Shown here: positions 4,528 through 9,127 of the stretch, piece by piece
Layout of the letters: each line of letters starts with the position of its first letter
Position numbering within the stretch: position 1 is the stretch's first letter
Notes under the pieces: model-generated
Databases searched by the model: none
What the model was told of the DNA's origin: nothing
The model's input: the letters and a program-made list of their open reading frames with translations, nothing else
Virus record (IMG/VR): IMGVR_UViG_3300044623_001231
Strand: one strand, 5' to 3'
Origin: a virus
Taxonomy: Duplodnaviria > Heunggongvirae > Uroviricota > Caudoviricetes
DNA length: 13,530 bases
Position numbers and translations under genes: made by a program

Positions 4528-4577
4528 CAAATATACGAAATTTAATCCATATAAACAAGCTATTAGTGAATTATTTT
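4528..4577 (-). promoter_or_regulatory. Bacteroidota-type sigma70 promoter
   Basis: -7 TATATTTG (4535-4528), 20-nt spacer, -33 CTTG (4559-4556), AAAATA at 4577-4572. Confidence 0.8.
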
Positions 4578-7449: not shown

Positions 7450-7500
7450 CAAATATACGAAATAAATCCGACATATCCAAATATTAGACGTATTTATTTT
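7450..7500 (-). promoter_or_regulatory. Bacteroidota-type sigma70 promoter
   Basis: -7 TATATTTG (7457-7450), 20-nt spacer, -33 TTTG (7481-7478), AAAATA at 7500-7495. Confidence 0.82.
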
Positions 7501-7802: not shown

Positions 7803-7874
7803 CTTTACTTTAGGGTAAAGTAAAGTTATAGCTTTACTTTTATGTATTAATAGTCAAGTTAAAGCTTTACTTTA
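7803..7874. repeat. CTTTACTTT repeat cluster
   Basis: Direct copies at 7803, 7832 and 7865, plus an inverted copy TAAAGTAAAG at 7816-7825 that forms a perfect 10-bp stem with 7803-7812. Confidence 0.8.
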
Positions 7875-8253
7875 GGTACTGCGCTCACTGCGTTCGCTTG
7901 AGCTGTATAGCTTGTATCTCTCTCCCCTATATACTATATGTTGTTATACTCCTATACTCCTATGTATTCTTTTTCTTCTCTATACTACTATACACTATAT
8001 ACCCCTTTATACTATCCGGTATATTACCATTAGGTATATTCTTAGCTATATTATTTTTATCAGATGTGTCCGGCTTCGAGTTCTCCAGGTAAGAATTTCA
8101 AACCCATAGGAATATTCCACCTGCCCCCTACGTTTTATATACGGAGGGATGGAATTTGTTACCCGGTAAGAAAAATGAACTGAACGGATTATTCCACCCT
8201 ACCCTATTGCATACAAGCGCTTGGATGGATTTTCTTACCCTGGCAATAGGGCA

Positions 8254-8328: not shown

Positions 8329-8541
8329 TTAATATAGCTTTGGGACCACTAGCTCCACATAGGCCATTTCGTATGCATCTATATATGGTGTAGAATCTTC
8401 TCCAAATCTTCTTTGAAGCTCTTTAGCCAATCTATCTACCTCATCACCCATTCCTATGGATTCGGATTTAATCCTATACTCATCTACTCTTTCGTATATG
8501 CTCTCCAAGTCCCAGCTGTTCAGCGATTCGTATCCACTCAT
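8329..8541 (-). CDS. Hypothetical acidic protein
   Basis: 70-aa ORF that ends just upstream of the terminator. Confidence 0.65.
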   Translation of the reverse strand: MSGYESLNSWDLESIYERVDEYRIKSESIGMGDEVDRLAKELQRRFGEDSTPYIDAYEMAYVELVVPKLY

Positions 8542-8773
8542 TTGCGTTCTTTATTATTTTATGTTGTTGTTCTATCATGTGATTGAGGAATACCTCAACC
8601 GCTTGTTCTCTACTCCACTTCTTAGGATATACCAACCTATTACCCATTGGTATATACTCTTTTTTAATAAGCCCACTTCCTTTCGGTTCTTCCAATAGAA
8701 ACCACTCACCATCTACCTCTTTGAGATAGAGTAGGTTTTGTTGTTCTCTATTATTAGCTACCTGCTCTCCCAT
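8480..8773 (-). CDS. Hypothetical protein
   Basis: Start moved to ATG 8773 (MGEQVANN) with the A-rich leader AATAAAAGTGAAT. The longer TTG start would lie inside the tRNA-like element. Confidence 0.7.
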   Translation of the reverse strand: MGEQVANNREQQNLLYLKEVDGEWFLLEEPKGSGLIKKEYIPMGNRLVYPKKWSREQAVEVFLNHMIEQQHKIIKNANEWIRIAEQLGLGEHIRKSR

Positions 8774-8788
8774 ATTCACTTTTATTCG

Positions 8789-8860
8789 AGCGGAGAGTTG
8801 GAGCCGCCCCAACACCTTCTACCTGGTAGGTAGATGTCTTACTCTCAAGACCTCCTCCGC
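8789..8860 (-). tRNA. Atypical tRNA-Gly-like RNA, anticodon ACC (copy 2)
   Basis: GCGGAGG AG GTCT TGAGAGTA AGAC A TCTAC CT-ACC-AG GTAGA AGGT GTTGG GGCGGCT CCAAC TCTCCGC T. Complete 7/4/5/5 cloverleaf with U73, non-canonical T-loop, no encoded CCA. Confidence 0.85.
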
Positions 8861-8959
8861 AATTAATAGAACGATATCCGGCTTTAGTATCCCACTGCCT
8901 TATTGCAGTAGTATTCACACATTCGGTTTTATTAGATGTTGGCTTCAACCATTCTTTTG

Positions 8960-9031
8960 AGCGGAGAGATGAAACCGCCTCACCTCCTCCATATTGGTAA
9001 TATGGCGACTTTCTCTTAAGTCTTTCTCCGC
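8960..9031 (-). tRNA. Atypical tRNA-Gly-like RNA, anticodon ACC (copy 1)
   Basis: GCGGAGA AA GACT TAAGAGAA AGTC G CCATA TT-ACC-AA TATGG AGGA GGTGA GGCGGTT TCATC TCTCCGC T. Complete cloverleaf with U73, non-canonical T-loop, no encoded CCA. Confidence 0.85.
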
Positions 9032-9077
9032 AAATATCTTAGTAACGTTAGAGTTCTGTCTCAATCACATCACTATG

Positions 9078-9127
9078 TAAAGATACGAAATTTAATCGAT
9101 ATATCCTAATTAAATCTCTTTTATTTT
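9078..9127 (-). promoter_or_regulatory. Degenerate Bacteroidota-type promoter driving the tRNA-like pair
   Basis: -7 TATCTTTA (9085-9078), 20-nt spacer, -33 TTAG (9109-9106), AAAATA at 9127-9122. Confidence 0.65.

Follow-up and report, generated by a model that had tools for sequence, protein, structure and literature searches.

We analysed a 13,530-nucleotide (nt) stretch of viral DNA (IMG/VR record IMGVR_UViG_3300044623_001231, Caudoviricetes; the whole stretch is called the window), which represents bases 143,979-157,508 of a 270,865-bp viral record (G000; 33% GC; rated complete). Its minus strand encodes two tandem tRNA-Gly-like RNAs of 72 nt each, copy 1 at 8960-9031 and copy 2 at 8789-8860. 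We propose, with a probability of roughly 60%, that these RNAs would act as dedicated, ribosome-insulated glycyl carriers for Mom-type DNA modification by the phage. The Mom protein of phage Mu has a GNAT fold; it takes glycine from Gly-tRNAGly and attaches it to the N6 position of adenines in double-stranded DNA, after which an on-base rearrangement yields N6-carbamoylmethyl-adenine (PMC13219725). Mom is proposed as the client of the carrier because the RNA family to which the two copies belong is fused to Mom, whose co-substrate is Gly-tRNAGly.

Two tandem cloverleafs differ by compensatory changes

The preliminary description of the window had recognised two 72-nt cloverleafs at these positions from the sequence alone. 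Indeed, a cloverleaf with stems of 7, 4, 5 and 5 bp is the minimum free energy (MFE) structure of both copies on the minus strand (-25.1 and -31.5 kcal/mol, z ~ -3.2), and at most 1 in 200 shuffles folds as well as either of them. The pattern GCGGAG-N55-62-CTCCGC occurs twice in the window, compared with no occurrence in 200 shuffles. Copy 1 is made up of the acceptor stem GCGGAGA/UCUCCGC, A8, the D arm GACUU-AAGAGA-AAGUC, a closed anticodon arm with the loop UACCA, the variable loop AGGA, the T loop GGCGGUU and U73. Copy 2, which was identified by its sequence, its MFE fold and a covariance-model match, belongs to a second conserved subtype, in which the D loop UGAGAGUA is combined with the T loop GGCGGCU to give the G-C form of a D-loop/T-loop tertiary pair; its UACCA loop is closed by C32-G38. 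U73 is followed by CA or CG, so that CCA is not gene-encoded in either copy.

The features described as common to both copies, namely G1-C72, C2-G71, G3-C70, U73, U33-ACC-A37 and a 4-nt variable loop, are all present, and the compensatory stem differences that had been listed were all found in the sequence. The anticodon stems read CCAUA/UAUGG in copy 1 and UCUAC/GUAGA in copy 2, with four of the five pairs altered on both strands of the stem. The D stems are GACU/AGUC and GUCU/AGAC, and the T stems GGUGA/UCAUC and GUUGG/CCAAC, respectively. The G-U pairs G7-U66 (copy 2) and G50-U64 (copy 1) are consistent solely with a minus-strand RNA; this is also the strand of the adjacent genes. The MFE folds lengthen the anticodon stem, since positions 32 and 38 can pair in both copies (U-A in the first, C-G in the second).

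Homologues that escape tRNA finders form a widespread family

Standard searches recognised neither copy. ARAGORN called no tRNA genes in the window, in keeping with the low score that had been expected. Rfam 15 gave no match at the gathering score, with the tRNA model (RF00005) likewise silent at E<=10 (651 bases searched), and neither copy matched the described bacterial tRNA mimics in Rfam (YrlA, skipping-rope, DUF2693-FD, salivarius-1, viral TLS). BLAST of the region and of the single copies against 50,697 cultured-phage records produced no true match. The suggestion of an undescribed class holds only in part, a related pseudo-tRNA having been reported in 2011 (PMC3146451).

Homologues were sought with a covariance model made from the two window copies alone (R1) and with a broader family model (R2); copy 1 scores 100.8 bits with R1 and 87 bits with R2. 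The best R1 match in the genome after its own two copies (~100 bits) is the phage tRNA-Gly(UCC) at 29.9 bits. R2 detects no third copy in G000, its next matches being canonical tRNA-Gly, tRNA-Phe and tRNA-Cys. A search with the 97-aa open reading frame (ORF) beside the pair led to three related viral contigs, each with one or two RNA copies at the same place, which show further compensatory changes and carry UCC in place of ACC. A fourth viral contig (L009) was found by a pattern of conserved loop and acceptor positions and holds an RNA pair within a tRNA array, 600 nt from tRNA-Gly(GCC). Within the same array (L009:11657-11749, minus strand), ARAGORN marks a 'tRNA-???' of 93 nt whose anticodon has four bases (agta). 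A loops-only pattern requiring UACCA found nothing in viral contigs because the relatives carry UUCCA or AUCCA. Copy 2 is 89% identical across 82 nt to one copy each in contigs L023 and L074, and the complete window stretch is present in 14 lake-water metagenome runs.

At least 120 metagenome contigs were matched by pattern search. The same approach in one genome per prokaryotic species returned 63 stretches, including 26 genuine R1 matches that fall nearly all in Planctomycetota, with some in Elusimicrobia, Verrucomicrobia and Anaerolineales metagenome-assembled genomes (MAGs). The family amounts to at least 176 copies, at least 148 of them distinct, from lake, marine and sediment metagenomes, phages and bacterial genomes. 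The check that had been put forward, a covariance model from the two copies followed by a homologue search, has thus given at least 148 distinct copies that keep the fold.

Covariation supports the cloverleaf and reshapes its loops

In 98 distinct homologues, standard pairs occupy 99.0% of the cells over the 22 proposed pairs, versus 70.0% in shuffles and 38-47% when the partners are slid by 1-3 columns. Two-sided changes are seen in 18 of the 22 pairs, and the observed pairing percentage or covariation score was reached by none of 500 shuffles. On this comparative evidence, both elements are genes for structured RNAs selected for structure, which agrees with the earlier view that they are not a decaying duplicate. 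The alignments were fitted to the covariance model, and the search pattern itself asked for GCGG, CCA, GGCRG and CCGCU, which accounts for part of their invariance. Among ten members that came to light solely via the Mom protein, some variation is seen at A37, in the T loop and, one time, at G3-C70.

The stem model of the preliminary description was kept as a cloverleaf and altered in two arms. The 32-38 pair is C-G in 71, U-A in 19 and A-U in 7 of the 98 distinct sequences, and it is Watson-Crick in 143 of 148 distinct copies, where it covaries; this gives the anticodon arm a stem of 6 bp and an NNCCA loop of 5 nt. The first and last bases of the D loop pair in all 148 copies (C-G 89, U-A 59), so that the D stem has 5 bp. 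Furthermore, covariation links base 2 of the D loop to base 6 of the T loop (15-59; A-U 136, G-C 6, U-A 1, A.A 5). This covarying D-T tertiary pair argues for an L-shaped fold with a rebuilt elbow.

Glycine identity is retained while decoding features are lost

The identity elements of bacterial tRNAGly are G1-C72, C2-G71, G3-C70, U73, C35 and C36, and G10-Y25:G45 is the tRNAGly consensus triple (PMC9976931). Both window copies carry the full identity set, as does the family: G1C2G3 and U73 occur in 148 of 148 distinct copies, and G10-C25 and G45 are kept. A Mom-adjacent copy in a Methanosarcinales MAG (L313:3740-3815) has A73 for U73, which is the archaeal tRNAGly discriminator; this is a single case, and its assignment to the bin is provisional.

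In contrast, features of the decoding type are gone, with A8 in place of U8 and with loss of G18G19, T-Psi-C, the open 7-nt anticodon loop and a conserved U33. The T loop is GGCGGYU or GGCAGUU, and the D loop is UAAGAGAA, UGAGAGUA or CAAGAGAG. Compared with canonical elongator tRNAs, the RNAs have the cloverleaf with a 7-bp acceptor stem, and they lack the open anticodon loop, T-Psi-C/G18G19 and recognition by tRNA finders. Position 33 across the 148 copies is U in 64, A in 47 (plus 21 with AU in 8-nt loops), G in 11 and C in 3, both window copies having U33. At position 34, U (74 copies), A (40) and C (34) occur but G never does; some family members have an 8-nt anticodon loop. The ACC anticodon, which had been singled out in the elements, is accordingly not a family feature: position 34 varies, close relatives have UCC, and neither U33 nor A34 is conserved. 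The accompanying claim, that the RNAs carry the identity set of bacterial glycyl-tRNA synthetase (GlyRS) and are not ordinary decoding tRNAs, was borne out.

A tRNA-Gly ancestry of the RNAs is suggested because the next-best R1 match is the phage tRNA-Gly(UCC) and because the L009 pair adjoins tRNA-Gly(GCC). As judged from sequence, the pattern of conserved and discarded features is the signature of a non-proteinogenic aminoacyl carrier, since what the synthetase, RNase P and the CCA-adding enzyme need is kept and what the ribosome needs is discarded.

The RNA family is physically linked to Mom

ORF clustering showed that a ~250-aa same-strand ORF overlaps the RNA in every cellular or high-GC locus confirmed by a covariance model. 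This ORF, which ends in the RNA, corresponds to Pfam PF25680 (Mom), with E values of 1e-30 to 1e-43. We then have a reverse test that is independent of the RNA pattern, in which 40 cellular loci from species-representative genomes were chosen by Mom protein (PF25680) alone: 34 of the 40 have an R1 match starting exactly at the end of the Mom match, and two of the six loci without an RNA match are truncated right after Mom. The Mom-centred scans used closer alignments, an alignment of eight diverse Mom sequences being too divergent. Mom-fused copies score 50-78 bits with R1, compared with 30-44 bits for canonical tRNA-Gly, and have the derived characters A8, YAAGAGAR, GGCRGYU and the NNCCA loop in common with the window copies.

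In ~50 distinct mom-fused loci (e.g. L133:5220-5957, L147:2870-3625, L187:1557-2324), the mom ORF has no stop before the RNA. There, G1 opens an in-frame Ala codon, the 72 nt form 24 codons (AGEGSRETRNPPRIERSGQFRQSA type), and the frame remains open for another 7-157 nt beyond the RNA. A [PL]LF, QxLLF or QKMLF motif, which we take to resemble a beta-clamp-binding motif, is present at variable distance in 28 of 50 read-through tails. The open frame and the tail motif suggest genuine read-through, with the sequence used in two ways.

The neighbourhoods of the RNA differ between groups of loci. In AT-rich marine contigs, a MoxR/CbbQ-like AAA_5 ATPase of ~400 aa is usually encoded 250-450 nt downstream of the RNA (19 loci, ORF cluster 3). 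Mom lies 2.5-3 kb downstream of the RNA in two such contigs that extend beyond the ATPase gene: the order is RNA, AAA_5 ATPase, UvdE and then Mom in L128:2790-6528, and RNA, AAA_5 ATPase, small ORFs and then Mom in L104:1294-4541. Longer contigs of the AAA_5 type such as L026 and L040 gave no Mom match. In cellular loci (L133:5967-7961 and 12 others from Planctomycetota; L155:4766-6091), an N6_N4 DNA methylase is found upstream of the Mom-RNA unit. A conserved protein of ~665 aa with no Pfam match is encoded downstream in loci of this type, mostly at 35-140 nt and in three of them at 855 nt. Some cellular Mom-RNA loci also carry a HARE-HTH protein. The cellular Mom-RNA neighbourhood may represent a modification or defence module.

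The phage encodes two Mom paralogues and a CCA-adding enzyme

G000 has two adjacent mom paralogues, of 255 aa (152.5 bits to PF25680) and 267 aa (150.7 bits); paralogue 2 is located at G000:C1:258746-259549 on the minus strand. Both match the sequence of the Mu Mom structure (PDB 8bv8; E 2.6e-11 and 1.3e-5), and the equivalents of Mu H58, Y59, R111, S124 and Y159 are kept in both. G000 also encodes a CCA-adding enzyme, and GlyRS (PF02091, PF00587) is absent from it. Fem/GNAT-type transferases had been named as candidates to look for in the genome. The Fem-type families FemAB (PF02388) and Acetyltransf_6 (PF13480) gave no match at E<=0.1 in G000. Mom is therefore the only known aminoacyl-tRNA-dependent transferase found in G000. 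RNA and Mom also occur together in a related complete phage, G001, which has one RNA and two moms, and in G009, where they are 33 kb apart. A PF25680 match is present in 280 of the 50,697 cultured-phage records (0.55%).

An array of 25 canonical tRNA genes and a tmRNA lies ~27 kb away from the two elements in G000 and includes an ordinary tRNA-Gly(UCC) with encoded CCA. Three other large Mom-bearing phage records contain intermediate tRNA-Gly-like genes (L279:1501-1576, minus; L280:1501-1574, minus; L281:1501-1575, plus; L282:1501-1575, minus). These combine A8 and a closed 5-6-nt NUCCA loop with the canonical GG D loop and UUCGA T loop, which they retain. They look like a step from tRNA-Gly(UCC) towards the remodelled class.

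A promoter-like motif is common to the RNA pair, the CCA-adding enzyme and mom

A promoter-like motif (repeat D2) is found at 9074-9110 (core 9083-9106) on the minus strand, ~51 nt upstream of G1 of copy 1. It consists of the 24-nt GGATATNTCRNWTWWATTTCGTAT and [A/C]TTT[G/A] and has 11 sites in the 271-kb G000, all on the gene (minus) strand, with no site in 5 shuffles. Three of the sites are in the window (4533-4556, 7455-7478 and 9083-9106) and 8 elsewhere in G000; they are placed 21-50 nt ahead of ORF starts or 51 nt ahead of the RNA. One site is 28 nt ahead of the ORF for the CCA-adding enzyme, and another is 22 nt ahead of a 67-aa ORF that precedes mom paralogue 2. The same motif occurs 40-55 nt upstream of the RNA in L007, L008, L009 and L010. 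Its TAnnTTT[GA] element is presumably of the Bacteroidota -7 promoter type; this element and the occurrence of the nearest cultured Mom in a Polaribacter phage point to a Bacteroidota host. A scan for sigma-70 and terminator consensus sequences around the RNA site stayed at chance level.

Contigs from the RNA libraries X17 and X18, which derive from relatives with 90-95% likeness, extend from the spacer into copy 1, with DNA carry-over possible; their unmatched ends resemble the second copy of a relative. An 81-nt contig that covers copy 1, likewise from a relative, was present in one marine RNA library, again with possible DNA carry-over. The spacer-bridging contigs are a weak sign of a joint transcript, and the contigs of the three libraries do not demonstrate processed RNAs of 75 nt.

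The RNAs as proposed glycyl carriers for Mom

According to our proposal, the pair would be transcribed from the phage promoter motif ~50 nt upstream, and the precursor would be cut by RNase P and 3' processing enzymes. The non-encoded CCA end would be added by the CCA-adding enzyme of the phage or the host, and host GlyRS would charge the RNA via G1-C72, C2-G71, G3-C70, U73, C35 and C36. With its anticodon loop closed to 5 nt and its D/T elbow remodelled, the RNA would be excluded from translation, so that the glycyl ester would be reserved for the phage Mom enzymes. These would pass the glycine to N6 of adenine in double-stranded DNA, where N6-carbamoylmethyl-adenine would form and protect against restriction. 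The processing and charging of the RNAs, their avoidance of EF-Tu and ribosomes and their use as donors by Mom are inferences; charging by GlyRS and poor binding by EF-Tu would follow from the retained identity elements and the altered T arm. The machinery also fits the carrier proposal: the phage has its own CCA-adding enzyme, and one motif is common to the RNA pair, the gene for this enzyme and the operon of mom paralogue 2. Among the three functions offered in the preliminary description, that of a glycyl donor for a tRNA-dependent transferase is the one we prefer, with Mom indicated in place of the Fem-type enzyme suggested there.

Several observations weigh against this proposal. Mu Mom works with all three E. 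coli tRNAGly isoacceptors and without a special RNA (PMC13219725). The RNAs of G000 are ~105 kb from the nearest mom gene, and are thus neither adjacent to mom nor embedded in it; RNA and mom copy numbers are also unmatched, as the one RNA and two moms of G001 illustrate. None of 80 Mom-centred viral loci with the window's type of Mom has the RNA within 10 kb, the only matches near these genes being two weak ones, both in L212, to an intermediate tRNA-Gly-like form. For the phage clade, the link therefore depends on the few genomes in which RNA and Mom occur together and on the homology with the fused forms. The Mom-bearing record G006 has no RNA match, and the Polaribacter phage P12002L, which has the nearest cultured Mom (46% identity), has no R1 or R2 match. 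Of the Mu residues D149 and R151, paralogue 1 keeps the first and has K for the second, and paralogue 2 has N and G there. The R151A mutant of Mu Mom is inactive. The two enzymes of G000 may differ in activity or role. Finally, the conservation of GCGG, CCA, GGCRG and CCGCU in the 148 copies owes something to the search pattern itself.

The RNA could also be a regulator of Mom in place of its donor, either as an uncharged tRNA mimic that binds and restrains a toxic enzyme or, in the fused genes, as a cis element that sets mom mRNA and protein output through its removal by RNase P. The mom ORF of ~50 distinct fused loci reads in frame through the RNA, so that excision would destroy the message, and in Mu, mom expression is known to be under tight restraint. 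We nevertheless regard regulation as an unlikely explanation. A pure Mom-binding or processing element would need no C35, C36 or host-type discriminator, and free-standing tandem copies far from mom, together with the location of the L009 pair in a tRNA array, indicate a stable RNA that acts in trans. For the fused genes, regulator and donor roles are compatible. A decoy against defences that target tRNAGly, such as anticodon nucleases or TacT-type GNAT toxins, would spare the translating pool and seems less probable still. TacT acetylates Gly-tRNAGly with U73 and G71 as determinants (PMC9976931), and both are invariant in the 148 copies; moreover, the 25 tRNAs and tmRNA of G000 are a typical anti-depletion set, and its copies are free-standing and far from mom. 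However, a decoy leaves unexplained both the fusion to the mom ORF in 34 of 40 Mom-chosen cellular loci and the setting of fused loci in prophage or island modification modules, and a variable 33-34 within a closed loop is ill-suited as bait for anticodon nucleases.

We consider a translational role very improbable, whether as a GGU/GGN decoder via A34 or inosine, as had been offered for the window copies, or as a frameshift suppressor in the case of members with 8-nt loops. It is true that the window copies have U33-ACC-A37 in what is formally a 7-nt loop, that some relatives have 8 nt and that the GlyRS identity set is intact. Yet 32-38 is a covarying Watson-Crick pair, position 33 is free to vary, with A, G or C present in more than half of the copies, and T-Psi-C and G18G19 are replaced; a canonical tRNA-Gly(UCC) is already present in the phage, and both copies are rejected by ARAGORN and Rfam. 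The idea that the elements are hairpins arisen by chance, or the decaying pseudogene of a duplicated tRNA, would fit the silence of standard tRNA finders on both copies, but hardly merits any credence given at least 148 distinct copies from many phyla and habitats, with compensatory changes in all four stems and tertiary covariation. This candidate is refuted by the 99.0% stem pairing, the 18 of 22 covarying pairs and the D-T tertiary covariation.

The carrier proposal for the two phage RNAs can be widened, with a good deal more reserve, to a widespread RNA lineage that would have diverged from tRNA-Gly to carry glycine privately, insulated from the ribosome, for the DNA-modifying Mom enzymes. 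In this tentative extension, the elbow (5-bp D stem, AAGAGA, GGCRGYU and the 15-59 pair) would serve Mom as a handle and at the same time act as an anti-determinant against EF-Tu and ribosomes. In the fused genes, where the 72 nt double as 24 in-frame mom codons, a transcript would therefore either yield the mature carrier or persist as mom message, but not both, which would give built-in dosage control of a toxic enzyme. The two RNA subtypes of the phage might serve its two Mom paralogues differently.

The surroundings of the RNA pair

The two copies are separated by a 99-nt spacer (8861-8959, minus strand), which presumably is a piece of a single precursor transcript that is removed during processing. 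The 97-aa ORF (8480-8773, minus strand) starts 15 nt past copy 2 and is probably co-transcribed with the RNA pair; ORF clustering around the copies gave 11 loci in which a homologue of it follows the RNA on the same strand at a distance of 7-65 nt. Pfam and PHROG searches gave no match for this ORF or for the other small flanking ORFs (76, 70, 111 and 94 aa).

The segment 7500-8330 of the window has few ORFs, raised GC (0.44) and G-rich runs. It contains direct repeats (8085-8121/8162-8198 and 8147-8164/8223-8240) and a 27-nt imperfect palindrome (7816-7874). It has no Rfam match, and related phages keep short pieces only, such as 8038-8078. This region may hold additional non-coding RNAs.

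Comparison with known systems

The glycine chemistry of Mom was published as a 2023 preprint and a 2026 paper, whose authors place the likely recognition near the 3' acceptor end and mention possible adverse effects from co-opting the translation machinery (PMC13219725). The paper (Silva et al., Nat Commun 2026, PMC13219725) contains no mention of tRNA-like RNAs. A 76-bp tRNA-Gly-like 'pseudo-tRNA' with the anticodon DCC was described inside the mom homologue of Dehalococcoides ssrA genomic islands, with no function proposed (McMurdie et al. 2011, PMC3146451). Our literature search found no paper that connects this mom-embedded pseudo-tRNA with the glycyl-donor chemistry of Mom, and a 2026 preprint on three tRNA-mimic families makes no mention of Mom, glycine or phage. 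It appears that the structure of the class was noted in 2011 and that the functional link to Mom proposed here is unpublished.

The chemistry of Mom leaves the question of how phages avoid draining translation, which a dedicated carrier RNA that escapes tRNA finders would answer. If our proposal is true, the RNAs would join the staphylococcal cell-wall tRNAs as a second instance in nature of a tRNA lineage withdrawn from decoding to supply a transferase, and would be a compact natural example of tRNA core rebuilding that is compatible with synthetase recognition. The family is a marker of Mom-type DNA hypermodification in metagenomes, where its members are now unannotated or annotated as coding sequence.

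The Dehalococcoides pseudo-tRNA resembles the window copies in its tRNA-Gly-like cloverleaf, its DCC anticodon and its physical tie to mom, and a Dehalococcoides MAG locus chosen via the Mom protein (L317) scores 60.1 bits with R1. It differs in that the RNA lies inside or abuts mom and that in L317 the T loop is still canonical (UUCGACU) and a loop of 7 nt is retained, whereas the window copies are free-standing, in tandem and ~105 kb from mom, with remodelled D and T loops and a closed anticodon loop. As for Mu, G000 has two Mom-family proteins with the Mu-equivalent residues, and the donor chemistry needs an ester of the glycyl-tRNAGly type. Unlike G000, for which we propose a dedicated non-decoding carrier, Mu encodes no tRNA and takes any host tRNAGly isoacceptor.

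Ordinary phage tRNA-Gly genes share with the RNA pair the cloverleaf, the acceptor G1C2G3 and U73, a 4-nt variable loop starting with AG and, in L009, the setting in a tRNA array. The canonical tRNA-Gly(UCC) of G000 differs by U8, GG in the D loop, the T loop UUCGAUU and the encoded CCA. In staphylococci, non-proteinogenic tRNAGly species with altered D/T regions are charged by GlyRS, kept off translation and used as donors for bridge synthesis by the GNAT-fold FemXAB enzymes. They are cited as a precedent in the Mu Mom paper (PMC13219725, refs 55 and 56). The likeness is that extra, altered tRNAGly genes feed a GNAT-fold aminoacyl-tRNA-dependent transferase, as we propose for the RNAs of G000. 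The staphylococcal acceptor is a lipid II peptide, the enzyme is of the Fem type and the hosts are others; in G000 the acceptor would be DNA adenine and the enzyme Mom, and Fem was not found. The RNAs of G000 are also far more remodelled, with a closed anticodon loop and new elbow pairs that go along with their invisibility to tRNA finders. A non-proteinogenic tRNAGly that feeds a GNAT-fold transferase is thus a known logic, which here would be put to use for DNA modification.

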